A DNA stretch of 64,000 bases, from contig CAZHNO010000001.1 of assembly GCA_964534045.1 (NCBI GenBank), positions 1,786 to 65,785 on the forward strand, written 5' to 3'. Shown one piece after another: positions 4,011 through 30,924 of this stretch (position 1 is its first letter; every line of letters begins with the position of its first letter). The position numbers were made by a program, and so were the translations under genes. The notes beneath the pieces were generated by a model. That model did not search any database, was not told the origin of the DNA, and saw nothing but the letters and a program-made list of their open reading frames with translations. The stretch is from an uncultured archaeon (GTDB lineage: Archaea > Iainarchaeota > Iainarchaeia > Iainarchaeales > JAAZKV01).

Positions 4011-4029
4011 AATGAATTTATTATAAGCA

Positions 4030-8404: not shown

Positions 8405-8418
8405 TTTTCATTATTAAT

Positions 8419-10326: not shown

Positions 10327-10388
10327 ATTAGTCAAAAAAATATTTGTAAAAAATTAATAATCTTATTTTTGTTCAAAAATTTTGTTTT

Positions 10389-10856
10389 TTATATTTTTTG
10401 AAAAAATCGCTCAAAAAAAACTTCAACTTCTTTTAGTTTTCTAGAATCAAACTCAAAAATGCTTGAAAAAACTTTTGAATCAATAACCTTCATTTCATTC
10501 ATTGATAATAATGAAGACATTTTTTTGATAGCTTTTCCAGGCAAGCCTATGCCTGTTGCAAATAACACAACCCCTTTATTTTTATTTTTTAGATTTCTAA
10601 TAAATACATTAATTGCAGGCACTGAAGTAAACGAAACAATAGGAGTCCCTATTACAATTAAATCAAAATCTTTTACAATGGGTTGTTTTATTAATTCTAA
10701 TTTTTTTTCTTGTTTAAATTGTTTTTTTAGATTTTTTTCTTCAACTTCTACTTGAAAGCTTTCAACATCTATTTTTTTAGCTTTAAATAATTCTTCTATT
10801 TTTTTAGCTACCTTTGGGGCTTCACCAAAATTATAGTAAACAACACAAACATTCAT
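10389..10856 (-). CDS. Flavodoxin-like fold protein (tentative)
   Basis: 155 aa with an alternating beta/alpha pattern (MNVCVVYYNFGEAPK...DLIVIGTPIV...VVLFATG). Weak call. Confidence 0.3.
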   Translation of the reverse strand: MNVCVVYYNFGEAPKVAKKIEELFKAKKIDVESFQVEVEEKNLKKQFKQEKKLELIKQPIVKDFDLIVIGTPIVSFTSVPAINVFIRNLKNKNKGVVLFATGIGLPGKAIKKMSSLLSMNEMKVIDSKVFSSIFEFDSRKLKEVEVFFERFFQKI

Positions 10857-10970
10857 AATTTTATGAGAGCGAAAATCATTAAAAGGAGAATTTCAAAAGC
10901 GAAATGAAGGGTATAATTATAAAGCTAATTTAGTATTAAAAGCAAGAAATTTAGAAAAAATTTATGTGTT

Positions 10971-11567
10971 TTAATTGTTTATTGAAACTAACTGTAGCTC
11001 AAAAATCAATGTTTTTCCACCTAAAAAGTGATTTACTGATGCCAAAACGTTATTGTCATTAACTTCATAAATCTTTAATCTATATTGTCCAATGATGACT
11101 TCTTGTCCAACTTCAAAATTCATATCAGGCAATTGTTCTTTCAATATTACTTGCTTGTTTTCTTCATTTAGATTCCCATAAGCCTCTTCAGGTGGCAAAG
11201 TAATTGTTTTTGTATCCCCTACTTTCATCCCAATTACTGCATTATCAAATCCTTTTATCATTTGCCCAGTTCCAGCATCAAAAGTAAGTGGTTCTTTTCC
11301 AATACTAGAATCAAAAATTGCTCCGCCTTCAACTTTTCCAACATAATGAACTGAAATATTGTCTCCTACTTTTACTTTGCGAAATTGATCTAAATTATTA
11401 TAAGTGTTATTTGTGTTTGATTCATTTATTTGATTTGTATCATTTAAATTTGTATTATTTGAATTTGTCATATTATCACTTCCTATGCAACCAAAAAGCA
11501 AAAATAATGCCAAACTAAAAATAACAATTAATTTTACCTTCATAATGAAAATGAATTGGAAAAGCAT
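10971..11567 (-). CDS. FKBP-type peptidyl-prolyl cis-trans isomerase, lipoprotein-like
   Basis: Core VHYVGKVEGGAIFDSS...FDAGTGQMIKGFDNAVIGMKVGD. Has an N-terminal signal with LFGC lipobox-like motif and an Asn-rich linker. Likely start is the internal Met (MKVKLIV...). Confidence 0.75.
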   Translation of the reverse strand: MLFQFIFIMKVKLIVIFSLALFLLFGCIGSDNMTNSNNTNLNDTNQINESNTNNTYNNLDQFRKVKVGDNISVHYVGKVEGGAIFDSSIGKEPLTFDAGTGQMIKGFDNAVIGMKVGDTKTITLPPEEAYGNLNEENKQVILKEQLPDMNFEVGQEVIIGQYRLKIYEVNDNNVLASVNHFLGGKTLIFELQLVSINN

Positions 11568-11647
11568 TATAAATAATTCCTTTTTCTTAGTAAAGCATTA
11601 CTTTGCCATAATAATTACTTGAAAACATCTAATTGCAATTATTATAA

Positions 11648-12145
11648 TTATTTGAAGGCTTCCATTGCCAAATATTGTTCTTCTTTTTCTTTGCTTTCAA
11701 TTCTTTTTATTTTTTTAAATCCAGCTTTTTCTAAAAATTGGTTTAATATTTCTTCATCATAACCAAAATAATGATGATCTTCACCATAATTTTCAAAACC
11801 ATAAATTTTGTTTAATGCCCATTCTTTTTTTTGTCCTTTTTCTTCCAAAAATAATTTGAAAAAATAAGAAATATTTGGAACAATAATTTCTAATCTGCCT
11901 TGATTTTTCAAAACTCTATAAATTTCTTTCAAAGCTTTTCTTGCATCTTTCCTCATCAAATGTTCTAAAAAAAATCTTGAAAAAACTTCTTCAAATTCAT
12001 TATCTTTGAATGGAAGTTTTCTAGCATCACCAACAACATCAGCATTCACGTCTTTTCTAATGTCAAAATGCAAATAACCTTCAGTTGGTTTTTTTCCTGA
12101 ACCAATTTCTAGCTTTTTTAGATTGGTTTTTATTTTACTATTCAT
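11648..12145 (-). CDS. Class I SAM-dependent methyltransferase (Methyltransf_11-like)
   Basis: LEIGSGKKP...HFDIRKD...VVGDARKLPFKDNEFEEVFSRFFLEHL. Confidence 0.65.
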   Translation of the reverse strand: MNSKIKTNLKKLEIGSGKKPTEGYLHFDIRKDVNADVVGDARKLPFKDNEFEEVFSRFFLEHLMRKDARKALKEIYRVLKNQGRLEIIVPNISYFFKLFLEEKGQKKEWALNKIYGFENYGEDHHYFGYDEEILNQFLEKAGFKKIKRIESKEKEEQYLAMEAFK

Positions 12146-16247: not shown

Positions 16248-18164
16248 TTGATAGTAATGGGCTTTAGTAAGTTAAATATACATGAAAAAGTAATGAAAGG
16301 ATTAACAGAAATGGGTTTTGAAATCCCTACTTCTATCCAACAACGATGTATTCCTGAAATAAAAAAAGGACATGATATTGTTGGCCAATCATTAACCGGT
16401 TCGGGGAAGACCGCTGCATTTGGAATACCCTTGTTAGAACAGGTTACACCCGGTGAAGGAATACAAGCTTTAATTTTAACACCAACAAGAGAATTGTGTT
16501 TACAAGTAAGAGATAATTTAGAAAAAATGGGTAAATATGTTCCATTAAATATTAAGAGTATTTTTGGTGGAGTTGGTTATTACCAGCAAAGAGAAGACAT
16601 TTTGATTGCTGAAATAATTGTTGCAACACCAGGAAGATTACTAGATCATTTGAATCAAGGAAATATTAGTTTAGAAAAAGTAAAATTTGTTGTTTTAGAT
16701 GAAGCTGATAGAATGGTTGACATGGGTTTTTCAAAAGATGTAGAAAAAATTCTTAGAAAAACTGCTTCAAAAAGACAAACAACAATGTTCAGTGCAACAA
16801 TGCCTCCTGAAGCAAAGCACATAATCAAAACTTTTTTACACGAACCAATTTACATAACAGAACAATTGCAAGTTGATAATGAATTACTAAAACAAAAAGT
16901 GTATTACATAAGACAAGAAGATAAATTTTCTTTACTTGTTCATTTACTAAAACAAAATACTGGAAATGCAATTATTTTTTGTGGAAAAAAAAGAACTGTT
17001 GATAAGCTATCAAGAAATATTAGAAAACAAGGTTTTGCTGTAATGCCAATACATGGTGATATTGTTCAAAGCAAAAGACAAATGGCAATAAAAATGTTCA
17101 AAGATAAAAAAATTGATTTCTTAATAGCAACAGATGTTGCTGCAAGAGGAATTGACATTGACCACGTTTCACACATTTATAATTATGACACTCCAAAAAC
17201 ACCAGATGAATACACTCATAGAATTGGGAGAACTGCTCGTGCTGGAAAAAAAGGAGAAGCAATTAATTTAGTTAGTGAAAATGATAATGCACAATTTAAA
17301 GATATTTTAAAAGTTAGAAAAGAAATGACAGAAGAAGCGTTGCCCGAATTTGAAAAACTTGTATTTGAAAAAGGCTCTCACTCAAGAGACTTTGACAGAG
17401 ATTCTGGACGAAGCTTTGGAAGAAGTTCTGGGAGAGATTTTGGAAGACACCCAAAAGATAATTATAGAGGTGGAAAAGGCTCTGGAAGAAGTTCAAGAGA
17501 ATTTTTTAGAAACAGAGATGAGAATTCTCCAAGAAATAAATTTGGCCCAAAAACTGAAAGTTCTGAATCAAGTCCTTCTGAATCAGTTAGCCGAGATAGT
17601 TATGGAAATAGAAGTTCAGGAAGTAGTTATGGTAGAAGTTCTGGCGGTTATAGAGGAAATTATGGAAGAAGCTCTAGTGGCTATGGACAAAGGTCAAGTA
17701 ATTATAGAGGAAATTCTGAAGGTGGACGAAGTTCTCACGGTGGATACGGCAGAAGTTCTTCAGGCGAAAGTTCTGGGTATGGAAGAAGTTCTGGTAGAAG
17801 TAGTTACGGACGAAGTTCTAATGGTGGAAGAAGCCCTGGTGGCTATAGAGGAAATTCTGGCGGAGGATATGGAAGAAGCTCTGGTGGAAGTTCAGGTTAT
17901 GGAAGAAGTTCTGAAGGAAGTAGTTCTGGTAGAAGCCCAAGTGGTGGCTATGGAAGAAGTTCAAGTGGTTATGGAAGAGATTCTGGAGAAAGTTCAGGAA
18001 GAAGTTTTGGTGACAGAAGTGGAGCACCAAGAAGTAGTTTTCCAAACAAATTTTCTCACGCTAAACCAAAATCCTTTTCTCACAAACGTTCAGGCGAAGC
18101 AAGCAAACCTCGTAACTTCGGCAAAAGAAGAAATTATGTTAATAAAAAATCTAATAGAAATTAG
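16248..18164 (+). CDS. DEAD-box ATP-dependent RNA helicase with about 270-aa C-terminal G/S/R/Y-rich low-complexity tail
   Basis: Q-motif, TGSGKT, DEAD, SAT and HRIGRTARAG motifs. The tail is built from GYGRSS/GRSSG-type degenerate repeats. Confidence 0.85.
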   Translation: MIVMGFSKLNIHEKVMKGLTEMGFEIPTSIQQRCIPEIKKGHDIVGQSLTGSGKTAAFGIPLLEQVTPGEGIQALILTPTRELCLQVRDNLEKMGKYVPLNIKSIFGGVGYYQQREDILIAEIIVATPGRLLDHLNQGNISLEKVKFVVLDEADRMVDMGFSKDVEKILRKTASKRQTTMFSATMPPEAKHIIKTFLHEPIYITEQLQVDNELLKQKVYYIRQEDKFSLLVHLLKQNTGNAIIFCGKKRTVDKLSRNIRKQGFAVMPIHGDIVQSKRQMAIKMFKDKKIDFLIATDVAARGIDIDHVSHIYNYDTPKTPDEYTHRIGRTARAGKKGEAINLVSENDNAQFKDILKVRKEMTEEALPEFEKLVFEKGSHSRDFDRDSGRSFGRSSGRDFGRHPKDNYRGGKGSGRSSREFFRNRDENSPRNKFGPKTESSESSPSESVSRDSYGNRSSGSSYGRSSGGYRGNYGRSSSGYGQRSSNYRGNSEGGRSSHGGYGRSSSGESSGYGRSSGRSSYGRSSNGGRSPGGYRGNSGGGYGRSSGGSSGYGRSSEGSSSGRSPSGGYGRSSSGYGRDSGESSGRSFGDRSGAPRSSFPNKFSHAKPKSFSHKRSGEASKPRNFGKRRNYVNKKSNRN

Positions 18165-18234: not shown

Positions 18235-19041
18235 TTATTTGATTATTTCATCCAATAACTTCTTTTCAATCGCCAGGTGCTTGTCAAATCTTTTTGAATC
18301 AATTTTAATTTTTTTATTATTGCTTTTTAAAAAAGTTACTTTCCTCTTAGAGTTTTTTTTATTTAAAGTATCTATAATTTGACTAATTTTTGGAGTATAT
18401 TCTATTGCATTATAAATTCCTTCGCCATTTTTTATTGCTTTAAGTATTATTTTTGCAGCATCTTTTACATCGGTAATCATCAAAGTTGAATCTTTCGCAA
18501 ATCTTAAAGTTTTGTGTTTTTTATATTCAGTAATTATTTTTTTAACTCTATTCTCACTAGATTTTTCACCAATAAGAGTTGGAAACCTAAGAATTACAAA
18601 TTCAAATCCAAACTTTTTACTATATTTTATTATTTTCGTTTCAGCAATAAGTTTTGACTTTGCATAATCAGATAAATTTTTTCCACGTGTTTTCTCGTTT
18701 AACTTAATGGGGATTTTTTCTCCATAAACCGAACAACTTGATGTAAAAATAAATTTTTTTATTTTGTTTTTAACACAAAATTGTAAAAGATTTTCTGTAC
18801 CTTCAGCATTAACCAAATAGTAATCCTTCAGATTTTTTGTATGATTAAGCCCTGCTAAATGAATCACAATATCAAAATTTTCTTCAATAATAATGTTTTT
18901 TGTCAAATCAACTTGTTTGATTCCTTTTGCTTTGTGTCTACTCAATGCGATAAATGGAATTTTTTCTTTCTTTAATAAATTTATAACTTCTTTTCCCAAG
19001 AAGCCTGACGCCCCAGTGACTAAAACTTTTTCTTTGCTCAT
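18235..19041 (-). CDS. NAD-dependent epimerase/dehydratase family protein (short SDR)
   Basis: VLVTGASGFLG N-terminal Rossmann motif; 268 aa. Confidence 0.6.
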   Translation of the reverse strand: MSKEKVLVTGASGFLGKEVINLLKKEKIPFIALSRHKAKGIKQVDLTKNIIIEENFDIVIHLAGLNHTKNLKDYYLVNAEGTENLLQFCVKNKIKKFIFTSSCSVYGEKIPIKLNEKTRGKNLSDYAKSKLIAETKIIKYSKKFGFEFVILRFPTLIGEKSSENRVKKIITEYKKHKTLRFAKDSTLMITDVKDAAKIILKAIKNGEGIYNAIEYTPKISQIIDTLNKKNSKRKVTFLKSNNKKIKIDSKRFDKHLAIEKKLLDEIIK

Positions 19042-19076: not shown

Positions 19077-20234
19077 ATGGAAAAACTAGCTTTTTTTGGT
19101 GGCAAACCCATTTTAAAAGAAAAACCATTAATTAGCCCAAACATTTCAAAAAGTGCTCCAAAACTAATTATTAAGGCAATCAAGGATGGGGGGTTATCAA
19201 ATTTTGAGGGCAGTGGATTTGTATATAAGTTTGAAACAGAATTTGCTAAATTTAATGACACTAAATATGCTGTTGCAACAAATTCAGGAACATCTGCGCT
19301 ACACACCGCTTTGGCAACTTTTTCATTAAGTCCAAAAGATGAAGTTATCATTCCAGCATATACTTTTGTTTCAGGGGGGTCAATTGTAATTCAAGAAAAC
19401 GCAAAACTTGTTTTTGCTGATATAGAAAAAGACACTTATTGCATTGATCCAAAAAGTATTGAAGAATGTATTACTAAAAATACAAAAGCTATTATGCCAG
19501 TTCATATTTATGGACATCCTGCAAAAATGAAACAAATTAATAAAATTGCAAAGAAATTTGATTTAAAAGTAATTGAAGATTGTGCTCAAGCACATGGTGC
19601 GAAGATTGGAAACAAAATGGTTGGTTCTTTTGGAGATGCAGGATGTTATAGTTTTGCAAAAACAAAAAATATGACAACTGGTGAAGGTGGAATAGTTGTA
19701 ACTAATAAAAAAGAAATATCTGAAGAAGCAAAAATAATTAGACAAAATGGAAAAATTACTTGGAAAATACACAAAAGATTAGGTTATAATTATCGAATGA
19801 CAGAAATGCAGGCTGCTTTAGGAATCAGTCAGCTTCATGAATTAAAAAAATTTAATAAACTTCGTGAAAAGAATGCACTAGTTTATTTTAAAAAACTTAA
19901 AAATCTTGGATTAGAATTACCAAAAATTAGTCAAAATATAACCCATGCATATTACAAGTTACCTATTCTCATGCCTAAAGAATTAACAGAAAAACGAGGA
20001 ATATTTGTTAAAGCATGTATTCAAGAAAATATGCCTATTGAAACAGGATATTCTATTTCTTTAAACAAAATTAATTTTTTATCAAGTCATTCAAGAAAGA
20101 CAGAATGTCCAGTTGCAGAAGATTTTGTAAAAAGAATAATTAATTTGCCTGTTGCACCTTGTTTATCTACGCAAAAAATAGAGTTAATTTGTGAAGGCTT
20201 AAGAAAAGTATTTAATGAAATTGATTCTCTATAA
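19077..20234 (+). CDS. DegT/DnrJ/EryC1/StrS-family PLP-dependent sugar aminotransferase
   Basis: 385 aa; family layout with conserved region DCAQAHGA...GD...SF...K (the PLP-lysine region). Confidence 0.75.
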   Translation: MEKLAFFGGKPILKEKPLISPNISKSAPKLIIKAIKDGGLSNFEGSGFVYKFETEFAKFNDTKYAVATNSGTSALHTALATFSLSPKDEVIIPAYTFVSGGSIVIQENAKLVFADIEKDTYCIDPKSIEECITKNTKAIMPVHIYGHPAKMKQINKIAKKFDLKVIEDCAQAHGAKIGNKMVGSFGDAGCYSFAKTKNMTTGEGGIVVTNKKEISEEAKIIRQNGKITWKIHKRLGYNYRMTEMQAALGISQLHELKKFNKLREKNALVYFKKLKNLGLELPKISQNITHAYYKLPILMPKELTEKRGIFVKACIQENMPIETGYSISLNKINFLSSHSRKTECPVAEDFVKRIINLPVAPCLSTQKIELICEGLRKVFNEIDSL

Positions 20235-20238
20235 TTAT

Positions 20239-20574
20239 ATGAAAAGCCTGGTCAAAGGAATAATTGCTTCTAAAGGTATTGCTGAAGGCACTTGTGTTGT
20301 TGTTAATTCATTAGATGACTTTGCAAAGGTTAGTGAAGGCCAAATTCTCGTCGTGAAAAATACTGACCCTTCATTTGTGATTCTTTTTTCAAAAGTTTCT
20401 GGAATTATAACAGAAATTGGTGGAATGTGTTCACACGCAGCAATAGTATCAAGAGAAATGGGTTTGCCATGTATTGTTGGCACTGGCAATGCAAGAGAAA
20501 TTCTCAAAGACGGAATGAAAATTGTTTTGAATGCAAATGAAGGAATGGTTTATGAATCAAACAAAGATGAATGA
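20239..20574 (+). CDS. Stand-alone PEP-utilising-enzyme mobile (swivelling phosphohistidine) domain protein
   Basis: GGMCSHAAIVSREMGLPCIVGTG, the signature of the PEP-utilisers phosphohistidine domain. Only about 110 aa, with no ATP-grasp or PEP-binding domains attached. Confidence 0.6.
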   Translation: MKSLVKGIIASKGIAEGTCVVVNSLDDFAKVSEGQILVVKNTDPSFVILFSKVSGIITEIGGMCSHAAIVSREMGLPCIVGTGNAREILKDGMKIVLNANEGMVYESNKDE

Positions 20575-21646
20575 TTTTTTTAATTCACTAAATTATGCAA
20601 TTGAAAAAACAGATAGTGGCACTTTTTGGCCAGGGGGCGGTGGACAAATAGGTTCACCATTTGTTGCAATTGATGCTCTTGCCTTACACAATCAATTGCT
20701 TGAATTAAAAAAAAATAAAAGTGCTTCTGAATTAACAAACTTTTTTTATAATCCTTCTGTGATTCGCTATGTTGTTGTTGGAAATTTTATAATTGGACTA
20801 AAAGTTTTAATCCGTGATAAAAAGATTTCTCTTGAGTCTGCAAAAGAATCTCTTGAATTTTTTTTAGATATACTTGATTCAAAAATGGATTCAGACCCTT
20901 TTTGTGTTACTGGAAAAAATAATTGGTTTAGCCAAAAAAAAGTTAATATATTAGTTCAAAATTTAACTTTTAATAGTGCAGATGAAAAAGAACAGACACT
21001 CATTTCAAGAATGGTTATAGCTCTAAATTCTCTTGTTTGGTCTTTTTATTATGATATTTATGTTGAAGCAGGTTTTGAATTCCATGGACCTTATAATATT
21101 GAATTTAATGGAAAAAAATATTCTCTTTTAATAAGAGATTATCATGACTTAAAACCAATTGACCTTTGGGAGAATGCTAAAAAAATTAGTAATCAGTCAG
21201 TTAAATTGTATTTACTTTACTCTAGAGTTGACATAAAGCTAGATTATTTTATGCATGAATTATCAGATGAACCATTGCGAAAGAACCTCGCATTTTATGC
21301 AATTGAATTAACTGATTCTGAAGGCAAAAAAAGTTTTGTTCAAGTTAATGATTGTATAGAAATTATTGAAGAAGTAGAAAAAACTACATTTGAACAAGTT
21401 AATTTTGTAAACAAGCTTGATACTATAGAAAAAATAAAAAAAGGAGCAATGATTTGTTTTTATCAACTCAAAAGTTTTCGTGAAAAAATTGGTATTGATT
21501 GGAAACCATCAAAAGAAGTTTTTGAAGCAATTGATACAAAAGGTTTAGAAAAATGGGAAAAATTTAAAGCAAGAGCAAATGCCATTAGCACTGGAACTGC
21601 AAATATTGATTGGAGTGCAAAATACGATTTAAACAAGCCCTTGTAA
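20567..21646 (+). CDS. Hypothetical protein (translationally coupled to PEP-utiliser domain gene)
   Basis: The ATG overlaps the upstream stop (atgaATGA). About 360 aa with no recognisable motif. Confidence 0.35.
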   Translation: MNDFFNSLNYAIEKTDSGTFWPGGGGQIGSPFVAIDALALHNQLLELKKNKSASELTNFFYNPSVIRYVVVGNFIIGLKVLIRDKKISLESAKESLEFFLDILDSKMDSDPFCVTGKNNWFSQKKVNILVQNLTFNSADEKEQTLISRMVIALNSLVWSFYYDIYVEAGFEFHGPYNIEFNGKKYSLLIRDYHDLKPIDLWENAKKISNQSVKLYLLYSRVDIKLDYFMHELSDEPLRKNLAFYAIELTDSEGKKSFVQVNDCIEIIEEVEKTTFEQVNFVNKLDTIEKIKKGAMICFYQLKSFREKIGIDWKPSKEVFEAIDTKGLEKWEKFKARANAISTGTANIDWSAKYDLNKPL

Positions 21647-22654
21647 TTATAAAACAACACTACTTGTTTCACACTTTCTCGCCATTTCAATAATTTTTTT
21701 AGTATCCATATCAATTGTATTTTTATATGATTTTGAGAGTTTGTTTCCATTTCTATCTTTTACAACTGGAGTTATTAGAGTTAGTGGTTCTTCAAAATCT
21801 GGTTCAAACTCTTTAAGTAGCAAAGAATTAACATTCACACTTCCCCCATTATAATGATCTCCCCCTCGAATACACAAATCTATTTTAAGCAATAAAAGTC
21901 TTGGAATCAACAAAGGCTTGTGATAAATCCAATAATCAAATTCTGTTATATTTTTTTCAAATGTTTTTCCACATTTTTTACACTCAAATAGTGTTGTTGA
22001 TTTATTGATTTTTGTTTTACCATTTGATTCTTTGCAAGCTGGACAAATTGCACCAGCATAGTGTGCCAGTTCAGGAATTATTTTTTCACCAGTTGCTTTT
22101 TTTATAATTTCAGCAATCTTTTGAGGTTGCTGAATAGCTATTTTTAAATATTTTTGAAAAACTTTTTCACCAAGCAATGATGAATTTCTCACAAACTCAA
22201 TTTTTATTTTAGGAAACTCTTTTTCAAACGCATTTTTCATTTCTTTTCTTATCAACTCTTCATAGTGATCAATTATCTTTTCATGACATTTACCACTATC
22301 TAGCAGATTTCCAATATTTGTTTTTTCACAAATTATATTTGACCCATAGGTTGGTTCTTCAGTATCAAGATAGTCCGCAATCTTTTTGTAATAATAATTT
22401 TTACCATCAAATTCAAGATAGGATAATTCATTTGGCTCAAAATCATTTAGTGATATAAAAATAGTAAACTCTGGTTCTGTCCCATTCTTTTTTAGTTGTT
22501 CTGCAAGTAAATAGGGATAAGCAATTAATGCCATTTTATTCCCTGCGTGAAAACCAAATGGCCTTATTCCAATATGAATTTTTTCTTTGCCAGTTAGTTT
22601 CTTTGAAATTTCTTTTAAGCCATCCAAATACAAGTATGTTTTTTGTTTCATCAA
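21647..22654 (-). CDS. Class-I lysyl-tRNA-synthetase-like catalytic domain protein (truncated, no anticodon-binding domain)
   Basis: GIRPFGFHAGN matches the LysRS-I HIGH-region (G.TPSG..H.GN). KLSKSYKN matches the KMSKS-type motif. Also present: DLCIRGGDH (D.EP.GKDH-like) and a zinc-ribbon insertion CPACK...CKKCG. Only 335 aa against about 520 aa for LysRS-I. Confidence 0.6.
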   Translation of the reverse strand: MMKQKTYLYLDGLKEISKKLTGKEKIHIGIRPFGFHAGNKMALIAYPYLLAEQLKKNGTEPEFTIFISLNDFEPNELSYLEFDGKNYYYKKIADYLDTEEPTYGSNIICEKTNIGNLLDSGKCHEKIIDHYEELIRKEMKNAFEKEFPKIKIEFVRNSSLLGEKVFQKYLKIAIQQPQKIAEIIKKATGEKIIPELAHYAGAICPACKESNGKTKINKSTTLFECKKCGKTFEKNITEFDYWIYHKPLLIPRLLLLKIDLCIRGGDHYNGGSVNVNSLLLKEFEPDFEEPLTLITPVVKDRNGNKLSKSYKNTIDMDTKKIIEMARKCETSSVVL

Positions 22655-23679
22655 TAATCAACTCTTGATAAAAATTTATTTGCTTGACAATTTATTGGAT
22701 CACAGGAATCACAAATTCCAGGTTTTCCAGCATTTTTCATTTTTTCTTTTCTATTTTTGCTTTCCCAAATGTGCTTCACCGAGTGTGTAAAAATATTCCC
22801 AAGTAAAAATTTATCCCCTTTATAGGGCGTGTTAGCGCATGGATAAACTGCACCTGTTGCATCAAGAAATAAAGTATATTTGGACACAGTACAATCTATA
22901 TTCTTATAAAAATTTTTTGTATAATTGCCTGCTAAAGTATTTTCCATGTCAGCTGGTTCACCAAAAACAAATGGATTTTCATGTCTCAATTTTGTGTTGG
23001 TTTTTGAAGCCATTTTCTTGATCATTGGAACAATCCTATCATTATAATCCTTAACCTGTGTTTCATTAAGAAATAAATTTTTATTTCCCCTAATTGGAAT
23101 TAAATTTAATTCATCAAACAATTTACCACCATATTCATCCATCAACTCATGAATGTGCTCATAATTCAAATTATTTACAACATAGTTTACGATAACCTTC
23201 TGATTTGGGGACTTTTTTTTAAGAAATTCTAAATTACCAATTATCTTTTCAAAACTTTTTATCCCCCTTATTCTATTATGAGTTTCTGCCCTAGAAGAAT
23301 CAATTGACACATGTATTTGCTTTGGTGAATACATCAGCACCCTATTTATTATTTCTCTTGACAAGGTAAATCCATTTGTTATAAACGAAAAATCCATCCC
23401 CAAATCTTTTGTCAACATCATTGTCTCAAAAAAATATGGATAGATTGTTGGTTCTCCACCAGTCAACCTTATTTCTTTTGTACCCAACTCTTTTGCATCA
23501 ATAACTGCATTTTTTATTTTTTCAAAAGTTAGACCAGAATCAGTTTTTTTCCAAAAATCACACATAATGCATCTTGAATTGCACCTATAGGATGGCCTAA
23601 TTATGAAAAGTAATGGTTTTGTTACGCCAGCTTTATCTAGTGATAACACTTCATTTTGCAGTAAATCATCCACTACCAA
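22651..23679 (-). CDS. Radical SAM enzyme with C-terminal SPASM-like Cys cluster
   Basis: CNSRCIMC (CxxxCxxC) near the N-terminus and GGEPT glycine-rich motif. The C-terminus carries CANTPYKGD...GICDSCDPINC, typical of SPASM/twitch auxiliary clusters. Confidence 0.75.
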   Translation of the reverse strand: MVVDDLLQNEVLSLDKAGVTKPLLFIIRPSYRCNSRCIMCDFWKKTDSGLTFEKIKNAVIDAKELGTKEIRLTGGEPTIYPYFFETMMLTKDLGMDFSFITNGFTLSREIINRVLMYSPKQIHVSIDSSRAETHNRIRGIKSFEKIIGNLEFLKKKSPNQKVIVNYVVNNLNYEHIHELMDEYGGKLFDELNLIPIRGNKNLFLNETQVKDYNDRIVPMIKKMASKTNTKLRHENPFVFGEPADMENTLAGNYTKNFYKNIDCTVSKYTLFLDATGAVYPCANTPYKGDKFLLGNIFTHSVKHIWESKNRKEKMKNAGKPGICDSCDPINCQANKFLSRVDY

Positions 23680-24628
23680 ACACCTCTTGAATTAATTTAT
23701 AATATTTCCCAGCATACTTATTTTCTTTAAACTTTTTTGGCAGAATCGAAAAGTAAAAACTTTTTGATTCTTTACATGCCTTTGAAAAGGCAAGGTTTAG
23801 AATATTTTTTGGTGTAATGAAAACCTTTTCTTTGGCAACAGAAGAGTACATTCGTTTTTTTCCAAATAAGTTTGGAGTTGGCAAATAGGCCAAGTGGAAC
23901 AGCCTTTTGTTTTTTGATATACGCCTTGCAGTTTGTACTGCCTTTACTTGCTGAATATTTTCTACCACTAGAATGGTTGGATTTTTTATCTGGGTTAGCT
24001 CTTCCAAAAAATCAGGGAGATAGGTTACCAAAAATCGCTTATGAAGATTTACTTTTGTTTTATCCAATTTTAAAAAGGCTTCTTTCGCCCGATGGTCATT
24101 ATTTCCAATATAATATAATGTATCAAGTTCTTGTTGAGTAACTTTTTTTTCTATATTTTTTACATATTTTTCAATAAGCATATTTACTCTCTTTTCTGAT
24201 GTGTCAATAATCTGTATTTCTTCATAGTCAAGCGATTTGCTGATATCAGAAATAATTTTTTCAAATACTTTTTTTGTTTCAGACCAACTTTTTCCACTTC
24301 TCAATTCTTCTTCTTTTATACTTAGATAAATAAATGCTGGAACCTTAATTTCTTTTGCAAGCAAAATAAGATTTGTTAAATCATTAATACTTTCTATTGT
24401 AATAGAATCAAAATTATCCGTTATACATGGCCCACCAATTACTATTGTATTTTTGCTAAATTTTTTTGGAATTCCTTTTGTCACTCCTATGAATTGCCTT
24501 TGTTTCAATGTTTCCAAATCTAGCTCAGTTTTTTTTATTGAATCAAGCCCATATCGCTCATTAATTTTAGCACTTCCTTCCCAATACCACTCTCTCAAGA
24601 AGAAATCTAAACTATTAATTCTGTACAT
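23666..24628 (-). CDS. Hypothetical protein (operon member)
   Basis: 320 aa, overlaps both neighbours, no motif recognised. Confidence 0.35.
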   Translation of the reverse strand: MYRINSLDFFLREWYWEGSAKINERYGLDSIKKTELDLETLKQRQFIGVTKGIPKKFSKNTIVIGGPCITDNFDSITIESINDLTNLILLAKEIKVPAFIYLSIKEEELRSGKSWSETKKVFEKIISDISKSLDYEEIQIIDTSEKRVNMLIEKYVKNIEKKVTQQELDTLYYIGNNDHRAKEAFLKLDKTKVNLHKRFLVTYLPDFLEELTQIKNPTILVVENIQQVKAVQTARRISKNKRLFHLAYLPTPNLFGKKRMYSSVAKEKVFITPKNILNLAFSKACKESKSFYFSILPKKFKENKYAGKYYKLIQEVFGSG

Positions 24629-25056
24629 ATTTCCCCTTCCAAAATTTTTGGTATTTCTGTTTCATCCCTAAACCTAATTATTTTTGAATCAGTAACTGAT
24701 GAAAGCCCATTAACCAGTGGAGAATATTCAGTTTCTTCATGAAGCAATAAAATTATTCTTTTGTTTAAAGCAGATGCCCACCCTAATTCTACTTGCACGC
24801 CTCCAGAAGGCGGATTTCCAACAATGGCTAAAAATAAATCACAATCTTGTATTTCTTTGAAATCTTCTTTTGTGCACACCAATGGGTGCATCAATTCTTT
24901 TCCAAATTTTTCTCTTTTATGCGCATTTCTTACAACATGTCCTTTTTGTTCAAGTTGTTCAATTAGGTTAATAATAAAATTAACTTTGTGAGTATGAACT
25001 ATACTTGTATTTTTATTAATGTCCTGAGTAAATGGCGCACCCAAAAATATTTGCAT
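24607..25056 (-). CDS. Nucleoside 2-deoxyribosyltransferase-like protein
   Basis: 149 aa; DLFLAIVGNPPSGGVQVELGWASA resembles the NDT-family catalytic-Glu segment (D.GT.FE.G-type). Confidence 0.45.
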   Translation of the reverse strand: MQIFLGAPFTQDINKNTSIVHTHKVNFIINLIEQLEQKGHVVRNAHKREKFGKELMHPLVCTKEDFKEIQDCDLFLAIVGNPPSGGVQVELGWASALNKRIILLLHEETEYSPLVNGLSSVTDSKIIRFRDETEIPKILEGEICTELIV

Positions 25057-25057
25057 T

Positions 25058-26203
25058 TTAAACTCCTCCTAAAAGTTTATTTATTTCTTTTACTATTGCT
25101 GGCAGTCCATTTCCACCAAGTTTGTTAAAATATTTTTTTTGTTTTCTAGTAATTTTTTCTAGTTCTGCAGAATCTTTTTGAACAGAATCTAAAATATAAT
25201 TAGCGAGTTTATCCCAGCTTTTTCTATCACCATCAAATCTATTAACACATGCAAGTACTTTTTTTATTCCAGAAAGCTCATCTTCATTTTCATCAATTTG
25301 CACATCATAATAATCACTCCAGTTTAGTGAATTCTGGGCAAGACCTTGGTTATTAAATCCCCTAAGATTCCAAAATTGACTATAGTTTTGTGGTGGCAAA
25401 AAAAACACTGGAGTTCCAACGTTAAATGCTTCAAAACTTGTTGTCAACCCAGGTGAAGAAATTAACATTTTTGCTGATGCCAATTCTGCTATAAATTCAT
25501 CATGCCCTAAAAAGTCATAAGTTATTTTAGTGGATTTGTTTTTCCTCTGAAGCTCATCCATTACTTTTCCATTTCCAAGACAAAGAATTTTATCAAAATC
25601 TAATTTGCCTTCAATCTCGTCTAAGATTTTTGCTATGGCAAAAGGATAATTTGAGTTTTCTCCGATTTTTACTGATGCTGATTCCATTCCACCAAAATTT
25701 ATTATTAATTTATTTGATTTCTTTACTTTTGGATAATCTTTTACTATTGGGCCAACCAATCGTGGGTTCTTTATTTTATCAAAATAATTAGCCAACTGTT
25801 TTTCCACACCTTCAAAATTTTGTATAAAATAAATTTCAGAATTAAGTATTTCATCAGGAATTGTTTCCCACATCCAAAATAGACTATCTATTTGAATTTG
25901 TGGTTTTCCAATCCCATGCACAAACTTTGCAGATACTGGGTTCATTACATTTACAAAAATATCTGAGGTTTTTATGCGCATTTCCTGTTCTTTCAGAGAA
26001 TCTATGCTTTCCGTATTACATTGTATAAGTGAATCAATACGACTTTTGTTTGCAAGTTGTTGGCTAGTGCCCGAAACCATCATTGAGACACGATTGTCTT
26101 TACCAAGTTGCTCAGAAACAGTAAGCATTTTTGATACGGGCCCAAAACAAAAAGGAACTGCATCACATAGGATTGTGTGCATTTCACATGAAGACATAAA
26201 CAT
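25058..26203 (-). CDS. GT-B-fold glycosyltransferase-like protein (tentative)
   Basis: 381 aa. The C-terminal half has a G-rich nucleotide-sugar-binding-like segment (SSPGLTTSFEAFNVGTPVFFLP) as in MGT/GT28-type enzymes. Confidence 0.4.
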   Translation of the reverse strand: MFMSSCEMHTILCDAVPFCFGPVSKMLTVSEQLGKDNRVSMMVSGTSQQLANKSRIDSLIQCNTESIDSLKEQEMRIKTSDIFVNVMNPVSAKFVHGIGKPQIQIDSLFWMWETIPDEILNSEIYFIQNFEGVEKQLANYFDKIKNPRLVGPIVKDYPKVKKSNKLIINFGGMESASVKIGENSNYPFAIAKILDEIEGKLDFDKILCLGNGKVMDELQRKNKSTKITYDFLGHDEFIAELASAKMLISSPGLTTSFEAFNVGTPVFFLPPQNYSQFWNLRGFNNQGLAQNSLNWSDYYDVQIDENEDELSGIKKVLACVNRFDGDRKSWDKLANYILDSVQKDSAELEKITRKQKKYFNKLGGNGLPAIVKEINKLLGGV

Positions 26204-26278: not shown

Positions 26279-27547
26279 ATGGATATTAATAAGTATTTTG
26301 TGCCCCTGAGTAGCCATCGCCTTTGGTGGGAAAAAACCTTCCTATCAAAAATTCAGCCAAATCGAAGAATTAATGTTTATTATTCCCCAAATGCATCCGG
26401 ATTACACTACTTTTTTATTTCACAATTATGGTTTTTATCAAAACTCTCAGCTCTTGGCGATGTACACTACTACATAATTTTAAATGATCAGGTTTTTAAT
26501 AGCCCAAAAAATATACTTACAAAGGACGAAGCAAAAAAAGAAAGATTAAATGAAACTACTGCTGCTTTGAGTTTTTTTGGAGTAAACCCAGAAAAAATTC
26601 ATTGTTACTTTTATTCAGATTGTGTAAATAAATTGTTTTCTAAAAATCCCAGAACCCCATTTATTTTCTCAAAAAGCCTTAGACTTATTTCACCAAAAAT
26701 ACTTAATCTTCCAAAAATTAATATTGAATATGAATATTTAGGAGATGAACATAGTTACCCGTTATCTTACTACTTACCAAAAGTAATGGACTTACTTATT
26801 ACACAAGATTTTCATAACTTTTTTCCAGAAGATATTGATGGAAAAATTGACGTTTTCGTTTCAAGTTGGTTTGGAATGTCCTTAATATCAAAGCTTCATC
26901 CATTATTTGTAGAAAAGGGAATTGTTACCGATTTAAAACCAATTGTTGTTTCAACTAAAAAAGTGCCTTTTTTTGGACACAATAAAAGTTACTATCCAAG
27001 ACATATCGCACCAAGCATCAACATGAGTGTTGAAGATATTTATGAAGCCATAATTATTTACAATGTTAAGGAAGCACATATGGAAAGCTTACTTAAAGAC
27101 ATTTTAATACCAAACCTTGACAACGAGTTTTTCTTACCAAGCTCACCGGGAGAAGTAATAAAATCATCAAAAATAACTGACTTTAAAAAATTAAAATTTG
27201 AAAAAAAAGCATTATCCTTAGCTTACTCTTTCAATGAATTTTTTAAAAAAATAAATTCCTCCATTAAAGAATCTCCTAAAAAAAATTATTTGCTTATTGA
27301 AAACAATTCTGATTTGGAAGATATTAGCATATTATTCAAGTCTCCACTAGCTCTTCTTGTTCTAAACGAATGTGATGGAAAAACTATTTCAGAAATTTCT
27401 AAAAAGCTTGATAAACATCAACCAAATATAAGTAAAATAATTTCTAGTTTGAAACGTGCTGGGCTTGTTGAAAGTAATAATAAGGGCCATTTATTTGTAC
27501 AAGTTAACACAATAAAAGTAAATTTATCAAATATACTAAAAAAGTAG
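26279..27547 (+). CDS. Degenerate TyrRS/TrpRS-like Rossmann domain fused to C-terminal winged-helix DNA-binding domain
   Basis: N-terminal VYYSPNASGLHYFF...KLSALGDVHYYIILNDQ aligns with this contig's TyrRS (AYDGFEPSGQMHIAQG...KMIDAGFTFKMWVADW). The HIGH motif glycine is lost. The C-terminal LVLNECDGKTISEISKKLDKHQPNISKIISSLKRAGLV is ArsR/MarR-like. Confidence 0.4.
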   Translation: MDINKYFVPLSSHRLWWEKTFLSKIQPNRRINVYYSPNASGLHYFFISQLWFLSKLSALGDVHYYIILNDQVFNSPKNILTKDEAKKERLNETTAALSFFGVNPEKIHCYFYSDCVNKLFSKNPRTPFIFSKSLRLISPKILNLPKINIEYEYLGDEHSYPLSYYLPKVMDLLITQDFHNFFPEDIDGKIDVFVSSWFGMSLISKLHPLFVEKGIVTDLKPIVVSTKKVPFFGHNKSYYPRHIAPSINMSVEDIYEAIIIYNVKEAHMESLLKDILIPNLDNEFFLPSSPGEVIKSSKITDFKKLKFEKKALSLAYSFNEFFKKINSSIKESPKKNYLLIENNSDLEDISILFKSPLALLVLNECDGKTISEISKKLDKHQPNISKIISSLKRAGLVESNNKGHLFVQVNTIKVNLSNILKK

Positions 27548-27551: not shown

Positions 27552-28043
27552 CTACAATTTTTTTATTTCTAAATACTTTGCAATCTTTGATCTTAAAAAA
27601 GGGGTTAATGATTTGGCTACTGCAAGCTGTTCATCCCTTGGAAGTCTTTCAAATGCCTTTATCATATTTGCTTGCGCTGTTTGTGGATTAAAAATTCTTT
27701 TTTTTAATTCAGAAGTATTAACTGCTGGGCGAATAACATCTTTCTTTTGAGGAATAAATTGAGCCCCTTGCTTTTTTCTTTCTGCTTTTTCTAGTTTTGC
27801 ATGCTCTCTTCTTTGAGCATCCAGCTCATGAAGTTCAACCATAGTTAATTTGCCTGACATTAACCCTTGAATCATTGAAGATATTTTTGTTACTTCATGA
27901 CTAGCATTTGCTTCCTGTGCAACCCTTAATCTTTTAGAAAGATGTTGATAAACAGGATGTTCCCAATATTTTTTTGGATCAAACCTTGGAATTCCATTAG
28001 GCACTTCTTTCATTTTTGGCTTTTGCTCTCTTTTTTTAGGCAT
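27552..28043 (-). CDS. Basic hypothetical protein
   Basis: 163 aa, Lys/Arg-rich (MPKKREQKPK...). Visibly more G+C-rich codon usage than its neighbours. Confidence 0.35.
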   Translation of the reverse strand: MPKKREQKPKMKEVPNGIPRFDPKKYWEHPVYQHLSKRLRVAQEANASHEVTKISSMIQGLMSGKLTMVELHELDAQRREHAKLEKAERKKQGAQFIPQKKDVIRPAVNTSELKKRIFNPQTAQANMIKAFERLPRDEQLAVAKSLTPFLRSKIAKYLEIKKL

Positions 28044-28382: not shown

Positions 28383-28547
28383 ATGGCTAAAGTAATAAGA
28401 GCAACTCCTACTTTGAGAGGGGAAGAAGCAAATCTTTTCATTAAAGATATTCTAAAAAATGACAATGCAAGATTATCAAGACACCAAAAAAAGCTGTTTA
28501 GTTTTATTGAAAAAGCCCCTTTTTCTCTAGACGATTTCTCTCTTTAA
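28383..28547 (+). CDS. Small ORF (54 aa) downstream of a TTTTTAAATA box
   Basis: The ATG lies about 30 nt after TTTTTAAATA. Not in the ORF track because it is shorter than 60 aa. Its 3' end overlaps the convergent GNAT gene. Confidence 0.2.
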   Translation: MAKVIRATPTLRGEEANLFIKDILKNDNARLSRHQKKLFSFIEKAPFSLDDFSL

Positions 28548-29115
28548 ACTCATTAATATACGGCTGGACATCCAAATACATTGAAATGTAAGATGCATTA
28601 GCTTTTCTTTCTTTTAAAACTTTAAACCCTAATTTTTTATAAAAATGAATTGGCTTTTCAGATTCTTTCAAATTGCTTTCATTCTTTGCTTCTACCGTCA
28701 ATATTCTACAACCGGCTTTTCTGTTAATAAAAAACACTTGTTTTATTGCATTGCCAATAATCATTGTGCCCAATCTTTTCCTGACAACTCTTTCATCCAC
28801 AGCCATTCTTGCAATTTTTAGTGCAGGAATTGCCTTGTAAGGTATTCCATCTTCTTTGAATTTCTGCTTATCACTACCCCCTAAATGAATGGAATCAGTG
28901 CAAAGAGTAACATAACCAAGAATTTGCTTTTCATTTTTTGAAAACCATAAACTTGTTTTTCCCACTGATTTATTTTGTTGTGTTAAAGCATCCTCTTTTA
29001 GAAAATCATTCAAATCTTTTATCCCACATTTAAAATCTTCAATAAACTTTGAAGTAACTTCAGTAAGAGGCAAAATTTCAATATCTTCAACAGGATAAAT
29101 TTCTTTCATTAACAT
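28504..29115 (-). CDS. GNAT-family N-acetyltransferase
   Basis: IARMAVDERVVRKRLGTMIIGNAI acetyl-CoA-binding (R/Q-x-x-G-x-G/A) region; 203 aa. Confidence 0.55.
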   Translation of the reverse strand: MLMKEIYPVEDIEILPLTEVTSKFIEDFKCGIKDLNDFLKEDALTQQNKSVGKTSLWFSKNEKQILGYVTLCTDSIHLGGSDKQKFKEDGIPYKAIPALKIARMAVDERVVRKRLGTMIIGNAIKQVFFINRKAGCRILTVEAKNESNLKESEKPIHFYKKLGFKVLKERKANASYISMYLDVQPYINEFKERNRLEKKGLFQ

Positions 29116-29208
29116 AACTAAATTATTAAAATCGAGTTTTTAAAACTTAATAGAGCATCATGCCACTCAAAATTATTTAATTTCAGTTGGTGACAATTTG
29201 TAACCAAC

Positions 29209-30357
29209 TCAATCGTTTTCCCATTTCCCCAATTTAACCTGAAAACCTTTTTCTTTTTCCACAAATTTCTCTATTTTTTTATTACCTTTTTTTACTTCAG
29301 AGCCTAACTTCAAATAATTCAAATTAGAGTATTCTTCATACAATTTGTGTTTTTTTAAGTATTTTTCTAGTTTTTCCTTGTCCCATTTCAGTTTTTCTAT
29401 TTCTTTTATTGAAGCCTTCATTTTAGAGCCAAAAACAACGTTTATTTTGTGTTGTTTTGAATACTCAAACAAATCCTTTTGTAATTCTTCTTTTCTTTGT
29501 TTTAATTCATCTTCTTTTTCTTTTATTTCAACTAATTCATTAACTATTTTTACTCCTTCATCTTTCTTGAATTCTTTTATTGTTTTTTCTTCTAAATCTG
29601 CCTCGTGTTTGAAAGAAGGGCATAAGTGCTTGTAAACACAATAATCACATAATTTTGTTATGTTTGGAGGAAAGTCTTTACAATTAGTAATTTCATTGAT
29701 TTTTCCTATTGTTTCTTTTCTTATTTGTTTTAATTGTTCATAGGTTCTCGTGCTTTTTACTTCTTTATTAAATTTTAGCATATGCCACAACAATATTACT
29801 TTTTTTGCATCAGGATACTTTTGTTTAACCCAGAGAGAATACATTGCTAATTGCCTATCCTCATCCGCTTCTTTTTGCTCTTTCATTCTTGAATTTGTTT
29901 TATAATCACAAACAAAATAAGTGTCTCCTTTACAAGCCAACCTATCTATCCTAATTGAATAATTATTTGTTCCTAATTTTAAAAAATCACTTGTTTCTAA
30001 ACCAAGAATAGTATACTGCTCAAAAGGCTTGTAAGTATCATAATAATCTTCTAAAAATTTTTTTCCCTGAGTTTTGTAATTATTTGCTGTGTATTCTTTT
30101 TTAGTTATCTTTACTTCCTTTTCCTTTTCAAAATTTTTTTTCCACACTTCCTCATAATACTCTAACAATTCCTCTTTACTCAAATCCTTCCCATGCAACT
30201 TATCCCTATACAACTTCTCCAAAACCTCATGAACACAAGAACCCATAAACGCCTCAATAGTAGTCTCAACATCCACCCTAACCCTATCAACATACCTAAA
30301 CTTATAAGCCAACTTACAATTCTCAAACAACGAAATCTTTGAATGCGAGAAGTTCAT
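29209..30357 (-). CDS. Cas4-like PD-(D/E)xK nuclease with Fe-S cysteine cluster and coiled-coil C-terminal extension
   Basis: N-terminal Cys (FENCKLAYKFRY), IRIDRL..., VCDYKTN (D-x-K), and the C-x2-C-x5-C triad CDYCVYKHLC. Followed by about 120 aa of K/E-rich coiled coil. Confidence 0.6.
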   Translation of the reverse strand: MNFSHSKISLFENCKLAYKFRYVDRVRVDVETTIEAFMGSCVHEVLEKLYRDKLHGKDLSKEELLEYYEEVWKKNFEKEKEVKITKKEYTANNYKTQGKKFLEDYYDTYKPFEQYTILGLETSDFLKLGTNNYSIRIDRLACKGDTYFVCDYKTNSRMKEQKEADEDRQLAMYSLWVKQKYPDAKKVILLWHMLKFNKEVKSTRTYEQLKQIRKETIGKINEITNCKDFPPNITKLCDYCVYKHLCPSFKHEADLEEKTIKEFKKDEGVKIVNELVEIKEKEDELKQRKEELQKDLFEYSKQHKINVVFGSKMKASIKEIEKLKWDKEKLEKYLKKHKLYEEYSNLNYLKLGSEVKKGNKKIEKFVEKEKGFQVKLGKWEND

Positions 30358-30924
30358 TTATTTTTCACCCAAAGGAATTGCTTTTCTTATTTTACAATAA
30401 TGGTTTTCAGCTCTTATTTTAATTCCAATTTCTTTTGAAAAGAATTCAAATTCTCTTATTTTAGCATCTTTTTTTACTTTTTGTTCAATATCCTTTGGCA
30501 AGTATAATATTTTTGAAGAATGTGGATTATATAAGTCTAAAATAAATTTCCCTTGTTTTTCTGAATATTTTCCAATTTCTTTAACAATTTCATTGTGTAA
30601 TTTTTGTAATTCCTCATTTTTTTCTATTCTAATAACTAAATGAGATAAGTCTCCCGCTGAAAAAAGAGTTAATTCTTTTGATTTAATTTTAATTGGCTTG
30701 TATTTTTTTGCAATTTTTCTTAACATAGCTTCAATTTCATCTTTATGCTCAAAACAATTCCCCATTGAAAGCAAGGTTATGTGTGGAACATCATAATAAA
30801 TTCCATCATTAGGATGTTTGTTTTGACACTTTTTTGAATATTTTTTATGAAGCTCTTTTATCTCAGAATTAAGCTCTGAATACAATGGTTCTGGGATTGT
30901 CAAAACAATAGCAGTAGTCTCCAT
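30358..30924 (-). CDS. 2H phosphoesterase (LigT / 2'-5' RNA ligase-like)
   Basis: Two H-x-[TS]-x motifs (VPHITLL and NPHSSKIL) at LigT-like spacing; 188 aa. Start abuts the stop of the upstream nuclease gene. Confidence 0.45.
   Translation of the reverse strand: METTAIVLTIPEPLYSELNSEIKELHKKYSKKCQNKHPNDGIYYDVPHITLLSMGNCFEHKDEIEAMLRKIAKKYKPIKIKSKELTLFSAGDLSHLVIRIEKNEELQKLHNEIVKEIGKYSEKQGKFILDLYNPHSSKILYLPKDIEQKVKKDAKIREFEFFSKEIGIKIRAENHYCKIRKAIPLGEK

Follow-up and report, generated by a model that had tools for sequence, protein, structure and literature searches.

The biosynthesis of blasticidin S and mildiomycin in Streptomyces starts with a cytidine monophosphate (CMP) hydrolase (BlsM/MilB) and a cytosylglucuronic acid (CGA) synthase (BlsD/MilC), continues with a radical S-adenosylmethionine (radical-SAM) enzyme (BlsE/MilG) and a DegT-type aminotransferase, and then reaches an aminoacylation step (PMC3715490, PMC11784345). 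In other pathways, BshC and MshC couple amino sugars with an amino acid. Here we analyse a 64,000-nucleotide stretch of contig CAZHNO010000001.1 from an uncultured archaeon (the window) and one of its genes, which encodes a truncated protein related to class I lysyl-tRNA synthetase (LysRS-I). The product consists of a catalytic core of the LysRS-I type, and its gene belongs to a conserved biosynthetic cluster shared by archaea and bacteria. Our preferred reading, to which we give a probability of roughly one half, is that this LysRS-like protein is an ATP-dependent aminoacyl ligase of the MshC/BshC kind in a blasticidin/gougerotin-like aminoacyl-cytosine-nucleoside pathway.

The open reading frame (ORF) of the LysRS-like gene comprises 335 codons and opens on TTG. 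Its second codon is an ATG at 22651 that is likely the true start: in the letters TGATG it overlaps the stop codon that ends the radical-SAM gene upstream, and the 334-residue product is identical (100%) to the NCBI-called protein (P0001). The overlaps with neighbouring genes indicate translational coupling. The preliminary description of this DNA had recognized four LysRS-I hallmark blocks in the translation, and all four are present: a HIGH-type motif (GIRPFGFHAGN), the four-cysteine knuckles (CPACK...CKKC), GGDH and KLSKS (Table 1). Pfam PF01921 (class I LysRS) matches with 61.6 bits (E 7.9e-17), covering only residues 121–316 (profile positions 101–293 of 360). The LysRS equivalog cut-offs are missed (28.1 versus 147.55 bits for TIGR00467, 19.6 versus 648 for NF001968). 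A search of the PDB with the single sequence gave no match; a profile of 25 family members retrieved Pyrococcus horikoshii LysRS-I (1irx_A, E 1.4e-6). The AlphaFold model calculated from the family alignment (predicted local distance difference test score, pLDDT, 93.2; predicted template-modelling score, pTM, 0.91) again has 1irx as its best Foldseek match (E 2.7e-14), with the runner-up near 1e-7. Family placement is thus supported by profile and structure searches alike. The nearest structural neighbours that are not tRNA synthetases are BshC and MshC, which, together with the conserved ATP-binding motifs, is in keeping with the MshC-type analogy drawn earlier.

Full-length LysRS-I has about 500–540 residues, including C-terminal SC-fold and alpha-helix-cage domains. 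The window protein terminates 26 residues past KLSKS and its alignment to the 523-residue 1IRX chain stops at residue 289; the C-terminal tRNA-binding domains are therefore absent. This confirms a LysRS-I-type catalytic core that lacks the SC-fold and alpha-helix-cage anticodon-binding domains, as had been proposed, and no neighbouring gene matches a LysRS C-terminal domain, which speaks against a LysRS in split form. The relatives are built in the same way. The 159 near-full-length ones span 290 to 652 residues with a median of 332, and most have about 320–360, a few fusions aside. Only four exceed 400 residues; two of these are domain fusions, and a tRNA-binding extension is found in none. 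Natural fusions join the core to an aminoglycoside phosphotransferase (APH) kinase (P0097) and, in a high-GC organism, to an alpha/beta hydrolase (P0145).

The family is rare. A k-mer-indexed search of 5.8 billion proteins returned 26 clusters, and 92 when repeated with a profile; when 1.84 billion representatives were searched exhaustively with HMMER, 73 had E < 1e-30. In 185,579 species genomes (one genome scanned per species) there are 26 loci, a rarity that marks an accessory gene and argues against an enzyme essential to the host lineages; this agrees with the earlier view that a housekeeping LysRS is unlikely. The hosts are mainly bacteria of the candidate phyla radiation (CPR) and DPANN-like archaea. 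Those of the species scan are Saccharibacteria, Staskawicz-, Shapiro-, Nomura- and Beckwithbacteria, Paceibacterota and two metagenome-assembled genomes (MAGs) labelled 'archaeon', and a few host MAGs carry Proteobacteria or Bdellovibrionales labels. Family members are annotated as 'lysyl-tRNA synthetase class I' by JGI and as hypothetical proteins by NCBI. Two other groups of short LysRS-I-like proteins were seen. One is a sister group of ∼ 310 residues from Chloroflexi/Dehalococcoidia (P0156, P0236-P0253, P0154, P0165, P0179; locus L037 7001-7933), which has kept the four cysteines and lost both the HIGH-type and the KMSKS motifs; the gene adjoins a rhodanese gene, outside any nucleoside-type cluster. 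The other is a second truncated family of ∼ 340 residues from metagenomes (P0185, P0196, P0197, P0201, P0216, P0217, P0221, P0234), with the motifs GLRPSGxIHLGN ... GGDY ... KMSKS.

Within the family, G29, R31, P32, H36, G38 and N39 of the HIGH-type motif are invariant, as are N70, D71 and E73, R156, N157 and S158, W242 and R252, and G264, D266 and H267 of the GxDH motif. S307 and K308 of the KMSKS-type motif are invariant too, and most members have the canonical KMSKS. The four cysteines (C204, C207, C225, C228) never vary; their counterparts bind zinc in genuine LysRS-I. We compared the family column by column with 16 full-length LysRS-I sequences, in which these cysteine columns are 94–100% conserved. 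The ATP-site motifs and the four cysteines are common to both sets, whereas several positions that are 88–100% conserved in LysRS-I carry other residues in the family, mostly equally conserved ones. The Ser of the LysRS-I PSG motif is Phe or Tyr at position 33, the Glu of GNFRE is Leu43, a Lys is replaced by Trp242, a Trp by His245 and a Tyr by Pro296, and the Glu of DFE corresponds to residue 261, which is variable. We take the Glu, Trp and Tyr to line the lysine pocket of 1IRX, which a literature check did not confirm. Since LysRS-specific invariant positions are replaced while the catalytic machinery is kept, lysine, the substrate favoured with a question mark in the preliminary description, is doubtful. 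The amino acid used by the enzyme is probably not lysine, judged from these replacements.

The same conservation pattern bears on the choice of donor. Instead of activating a free amino acid, the enzyme could take an aminoacyl-tRNA and act as a tRNA-dependent aminoacyl transferase. BlsK has been reported to be such an enzyme, a leucyl transferase with a [3Fe-4S] cluster (PMC12710036), and MilH is annotated likewise (PMC11784345). The four conserved cysteines could in principle hold an Fe-S cluster, and the chemistry of LysRS-I itself depends on tRNA, according to PMC2034488. However, HxGN and KMSKS are strictly conserved in the family, and a transferase would not need ATP-binding motifs. The Chloroflexi sister group, possibly with a transferase role, has lost precisely these motifs and occurs in a different context. 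Genuine LysRS-I conserves the cysteines to the same degree. The k-mer searches, the exhaustive profile search and the name look-ups returned no Streptomyces protein and none named BlsK, and the high-GC relatives of the family are Chloroflexi proteins (P0156 group) or stand in an unrelated context (P0153). We consider a tRNA-dependent transferase rather unlikely.

The gene shares one set of neighbours in nearly all of 31 distinct loci, the ORFs of which were labelled by iterative searches with the cluster proteins of the window and the proteins of one CPR locus. Near-constant partners are a protein with the nucleoside 2-deoxyribosyltransferase (NDT) fold, a CGA-synthase-like glycosyltransferase, a DegT aminotransferase and a phosphotransferase; the latter slot is filled by an APH kinase in bacteria and by a swivel-domain system in archaea. 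Nearly every locus has DegT along with one or two glycosyltransferases. Five loci are of the archaeal type (the window, L001, L005, L010 and L011). Their set comprises the CGA-synthase-like glycosyltransferase, the NDT-fold protein, a 320-residue protein, a radical-SAM/SPASM enzyme, the LysRS-like protein, DegT, the swivel domain and a 371-residue protein, joined by a short-chain dehydrogenase/reductase (SDR), a divergently encoded 422-residue winged-helix protein and a basic 163-residue protein. The canonical CPR order, seen in about 17 loci, is ABC-F ATPase, NDT-fold protein, DegT, methyltransferase, GT4-family glycosyltransferase, APH kinase, LysRS-like protein and CGA-synthase-like glycosyltransferase. 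In L003 this eight-gene cluster spans 4070-12072. Overlap between the LysRS-like gene and the glycosyltransferase gene that follows it is usual in CPR loci, and the GT4 and APH genes are fused in L007 (2995-5091). A third bacterial variant (L025, L027, L031, L032) has a radical-SAM enzyme, two DegT-like proteins, APH, a glycosyltransferase, the NDT-fold protein and ABC-F. The preliminary description had placed the gene in a biosynthetic operon with a radical-SAM/SPASM enzyme. The operon stands; the radical-SAM enzyme as defining partner does not, as it is confined to the archaeal type and one bacterial variant and is missing from the canonical CPR form.

Two partners point to cytosine-nucleoside pathways. 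A profile built from seven NDT-fold neighbours matches CMP N-glycosidases best (4jen, 1.3e-27; MilB, 4.1e-19; BlsM, 2.1e-15), ahead of other branches of the fold (DNPH1/Rcl, 6.7e-9; true deoxyribosyltransferases, near 1e-6). By these profile matches, the NDT-fold neighbour is a member of the BlsM/MilB CMP N-glycosidase subfamily. For the glycosyltransferase, the CGA synthase model TIGR04467 is the sole substantial NCBIfam match (74.5 bits for the window protein and 44.3 for its CPR counterpart, both below the cut-off). A candidate fusion of the glycosidase with the LysRS-like core (P0095) was rejected: its N-terminal 195 residues look NDT-like by eye and gave no Pfam, PDB or local-profile match. 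A weak pairwise match of this part to a neighbour in L008 alone was not counted as evidence.

Table 1. Coordinates of the cluster genes, the motifs of the LysRS-like protein and other features of the window; family assignments hold at the match strengths given in the text.
Feature	Position	Strand	Basis or remark
Truncated class-I-LysRS-like protein	21647..22654	minus	334/335 aa; PF01921, motifs, fold
LysRS-like protein, GIRPFGFHAGN (HIGH-type)	22538-22570		
LysRS-like protein, CPACK...CKKC (4-Cys knuckles)	21971-22045		
LysRS-like protein, GGDH	21854-21865		
LysRS-like protein, KLSKS	21728-21742		
Radical-SAM enzyme, C-terminal SPASM/twitch domain	22651..23679	minus	CxxxCxMC motif; coupled to LysRS-like gene
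Conserved 320-aa protein, no identified fold	23666..24628	minus	archaeal-type cluster only
CMP N-glycosidase-like protein (MilB/BlsM/BcmB subfamily, NDT fold)	24607..25056	minus	149 aa; profile matches
CGA-synthase-like glycosyltransferase	25058..26203	minus	381 aa; TIGR04467; opens minus-strand operon
DegT/DnrJ/EryC1-family sugar aminotransferase (pyridoxal-phosphate-dependent)	19077..20234	plus	family match
Stand-alone mobile (phospho-histidine swivel) domain of phosphoenolpyruvate-utilizing enzymes	20215..20574	plus	family match
Conserved 371-aa protein	20531..21646	plus	no Pfam, NCBIfam or PDB match
NAD-dependent sugar epimerase/dehydratase (SDR)	18235..19041	minus	conserved beside cluster in archaeal loci
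422-aa protein, divergent	26279..27547	plus	∼ 340-aa N-terminal domain and C-terminal ArsR/Csa3-like winged helix
Basic 163-aa protein	27552..28043	minus	no family match; very basic
Class Ib (Tyr/Trp-type) tRNA synthetase	6242-7369	plus	14 kb from cluster
DEAD-box helicase	16248-18164	plus	low-complexity C-terminal tail
GNAT acetyltransferase, PD-(D/E)XK nuclease with long charged tail, 2'-5' RNA-ligase-family protein, then C5 cytosine DNA methylase	28504-30924 and 34219-35181	minus and plus	past cluster
ORF of 1309 aa	46884-50813	plus	no Pfam match
Fusion of 686 aa	55110-57170	minus	glutamine amidotransferase, asparagine-synthase and diphthamide-synthase (diphthine-ammonia ligase) domains

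The remaining cluster proteins are less readily assigned. The 371-residue gene overlaps the swivel-domain gene and the two always co-occur; the 371-residue protein is therefore presumed to be the phosphotransfer partner. The pair fills the slot of the bacterial APH kinase, which suggests, by analogy, a split dikinase-type phosphotransferase. On its other side the 371-residue gene converges on the LysRS-like gene with zero spacer. The 320-residue protein showed a weak hhalign match (E 0.04) to class Ic aminoacyl-tRNA synthetases (aaRS; TyrRS/TrpRS), in the expected register, with ENIQQ opposite GxDQ and KRMYSS opposite KMSKS. Possibly the operon has in it another aaRS-like protein, in degenerate form; its single-sequence structure model (pLDDT of only 35) was uninformative. 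The 422-residue protein is conserved in L005 (2105-3367) and L010 (6053-7249), and its N-terminal domain matched nothing in Pfam, in the PDB or in profile comparisons. The protein probably regulates the cluster by sensing a ligand through a new sensor domain. Searches of the PDB with profiles of the 371-, 320- and 422-residue proteins recovered the winged helix only. Profiles of the 422- and 320-residue proteins gave no signal against the LysRS-like family, and the 422-residue regulator did not match class Ic aaRS profiles. The 163-residue gene adjoins the cluster in all five archaeal-type loci despite rearranged gene order, and could encode a cluster component such as an immunity factor. A defence system was considered and rejected: PADLOC returned only the likeness of the radical-SAM enzyme to viperin and generic winged-helix matches.

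Several partners would also suit a locus that decorates a surface glycan or nucleotide sugar, with the LysRS-like enzyme N-aminoacylating an amino sugar, such as a UDP-4-amino sugar, that glycosyltransferases would then move onto a surface polymer. The best matches of the DegT protein are PseC and LegC, both nucleotide-sugar aminotransferases of surface-glycan pathways. Glycan loci also typically contain an SDR epimerase/dehydratase, a methyltransferase and a GT4 glycosyltransferase, of which the CPR clusters have a generic one. The MshC/BshC analogy likewise concerns amino sugars. However, such a role leaves unexplained the near-universal gene of the CMP N-glycosidase subfamily, the CGA-synthase-like glycosyltransferase, and the kinase and tightly linked ABC-F genes; the clusters also showed no gene for a flippase, a polymerase or a lipid carrier. 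Glycan decoration thus appears quite unlikely.

A two-domain ABC-F ATPase gene lies directly beside the cluster in 21 of 26 bacterial loci (L003, L006, L007, L012, L015-L023, L025, L027-L033). Its placement varies, upstream or downstream and in either orientation, and two of the five bacterial loci that lack it are cut by the contig end on that side. Among 189 families, the L003 copy (4070-5557) scores best with NF000355 (ribosomal protection-like ABC-F, 370.7 bits), ahead of EttA, Uup and PRK15064. The peptidyl-transferase centre, the binding site of blasticidin, gougerotin and amicetin, is shielded by ABC-F proteins both in bacteria that make antibiotics and in those that resist them. The adjacency therefore fits a ribosome-targeting nucleoside product without proving it; by analogy it implies that this centre is the target of the predicted product. 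A link to translation could also speak for a GluQRS-like enzyme that attaches an amino acid to tRNA or rRNA, either on a modified base or at the terminus. The partners are, though, enzymes of small-molecule chemistry (glycosidase, glycosyltransferases, aminotransferase, kinase), and RNA-modification genes, tRNA genes and Rfam elements were not found within the cluster, which makes an RNA target very unlikely. That the gene is half of a split housekeeping LysRS, or else a LysRS copy serving for resistance or as a decoy, is hardly credible, even though LysRS-I is its closest relative in sequence and fold and the 64-kb window holds no second LysRS gene, given the equivalog scores, the replaced LysRS-I-invariant residues, the absence of a C-terminal-domain match beside the gene and the rarity of the family described above.

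We therefore return to the aminoacyl ligase as the preferred reading. In the pathway that we propose, the CMP N-glycosidase-like enzyme would release cytosine or a modified pyrimidine from CMP, and the CGA-synthase-like glycosyltransferase would couple the base to uridine diphosphate (UDP)-hexose or UDP-hexuronate to give a pyranosyl nucleoside. DegT, acting with the radical-SAM enzyme, the SDR or both, would then turn a sugar hydroxyl, probably that at C4', into an amine; the aminotransferase probably makes the amine that is acylated. The LysRS-like enzyme, with ATP bound via the HxGN, GxDH and KMSKS-type motifs, is predicted to form an aminoacyl-adenylate. Attack by the DegT-installed amine would yield the aminoacyl (peptidyl) nucleoside, comparable to the action of MshC and BshC on amino sugars. 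The phosphotransferase (swivel domain and 371-residue protein in archaea, APH-type kinase in CPR) may modify the product or an intermediate, and in CPR the adjacent ribosomal-protection-like ABC-F protein could shield the ribosome of the producer. Every one of these steps we infer from homology and gene context, and likewise the acceptor, the biological role and a linkage by amide in place of ester.

A number of observations weigh against this reading. PMC2034488 describes lysine activation by true LysRS-I as requiring tRNA, so that tRNA-free adenylate formation is an assumption. The radical-SAM enzyme reaches only 70.2 bits with the BlsE/MilG model TIGR04466 (cut-off 400). Its scores of about 70–88 bits are alike for viperin, MoaA, AhbD and BlsE and all lie below the cut-offs; the viperin, mycofactocin, AhbD and MoaA models score it the same as or above TIGR04466. 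Because of these similar scores it cannot be assigned to BlsE. The TIGR04467 scores of the glycosyltransferase sit far under the 300-bit cut-off, and the surface-glycan affinities of DegT and the GT4 enzyme count here as well. In L008 and L026 the LysRS-like gene has few or no partners. The ABC-F argument has its own weaknesses: the score of the L003 protein lies just under the NF000355 cut-off of 380, the archaeal-type loci, the window included, have no ABC-F gene, and ABC-F proteins also have housekeeping roles.

On balance, we would give even odds that a LysRS-I core has been recruited from translation to small-molecule ligation. A broader model, which we put forward only tentatively, is that ultra-small CPR and DPANN-like episymbionts share, probably by transfer across domains, a compact gene cluster for a blasticidin/gougerotin-like aminoacyl-cytosine nucleoside that blocks the peptidyl-transferase centre. 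In this model the LysRS-I core, as a new enzyme family, forms the amide with a cytosine amino-sugar nucleoside in place of the 3' end of tRNA, the producer protects itself by ABC-F and/or phosphorylation, and the compound serves as a weapon or as an agent of host control. Compounds of the predicted class act as ribosome inhibitors in every domain of life. If the proposals hold, the family would be the first LysRS-I-derived branch of aaRS cores in non-translational chemistry, next to MshC, BshC, GluQRS and the cyclodipeptide synthases. CPR and DPANN organisms, usually described as nearly devoid of biosynthetic capacity, would possess a conserved, horizontally shared natural-product pathway and with it a concrete molecular candidate for the attack on, or control of, hosts and competitors by episymbionts. 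The clusters would further supply new scaffolds for nucleoside antibiotics and, for engineering purposes, a compact amide ligase.

The window as a whole has about 28% GC and looks archaeal because of its AMP-phosphorylase-like and diphthamide-synthase genes and the NMD3 and deoxyhypusine synthase genes of the syntenic locus L001. A class Ib (Tyr/Trp-type) tRNA synthetase gene is found in both (in L001 at 3310-4395, 5.6 kb from the cluster) and is probably a housekeeping gene whose proximity is coincidental. The DEAD-box helicase carries a C-terminal tail of ∼ 270 residues made up almost entirely of Ser/Gly/Arg/Tyr repeats (RGG/SSGYGR-like), unusual for a prokaryote. The acetyltransferase, nuclease, ligase-family and methylase genes past the cluster may form a mobile or defence-related patch. 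The 686-residue fusion protein and the 1309-residue ORF complete these observations (Table 1).

How, then, does the locus compare with described systems? The best match of the enzyme in sequence and structure is LysRS-I (PF01921, 1IRX), with which it has in common the Rossmann core, HxGN, the four-cysteine insertion, GxDH and the KMSKS-type motif. It differs in lacking the SC-fold and helix-cage domains, in its replaced invariant positions and in being an accessory gene of a biosynthetic cluster. Like MshC and BshC, it is a class I aaRS-like core without anticodon recognition that is encoded with amino-sugar-building enzymes. Unlike it, the cysteine ligases MshC (mycothiol) and BshC (bacillithiol) are descended from CysRS or similar to it, and their acceptors, GlcN-inositol and GlcN-malate, are not nucleosides. 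Instead of the deacetylase of those pathways, the clusters have a CMP glycosidase, a kinase and ABC-F. GluQRS (YadB) is derived from GluRS and acts on queuosine in tRNA-Asp, outside small-molecule clusters.

The Streptomyces bls, mil, arginomycin and gougerotin clusters have, by homology, counterparts of the CMP N-glycosidase-like and DegT proteins; their CGA synthase and radical-SAM enzyme have putative counterparts here that score below the model cut-offs. The present clusters differ from those of Streptomyces in their hosts, which are ultra-small CPR bacteria and DPANN-like archaea of about 28% GC, in the weak matches to the CGA synthase and BlsE models, and in that genes for an arginine aminomutase, a SerRS-like protein or a carrier protein were not seen here. 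They add a kinase, GT4, methyltransferase and ABC-F (CPR type) or the swivel-domain pair (archaeal type), and the predicted amide-forming enzyme is a LysRS-I core. BlsK and MilH are likewise aminoacylating enzymes of a cytosine-nucleoside pathway. BlsK is reported to need a Cys-ligated [3Fe-4S] cluster and, unlike the ATP use predicted for the LysRS-like family, employs Leu-tRNA by its reported activity. Our literature search found no paper combining CPR with 'peptidyl nucleoside', and the top-ranked CPR/DPANN papers did not mention CGA, CMP hydrolase or nucleoside antibiotics. Ligases derived from aaRS and cytosine-nucleoside pathways are both known already. What appears to be new is a LysRS-I-derived member, set apart from BlsK and MilH by reported activity only, and a cluster common to CPR bacteria and DPANN-like archaea.

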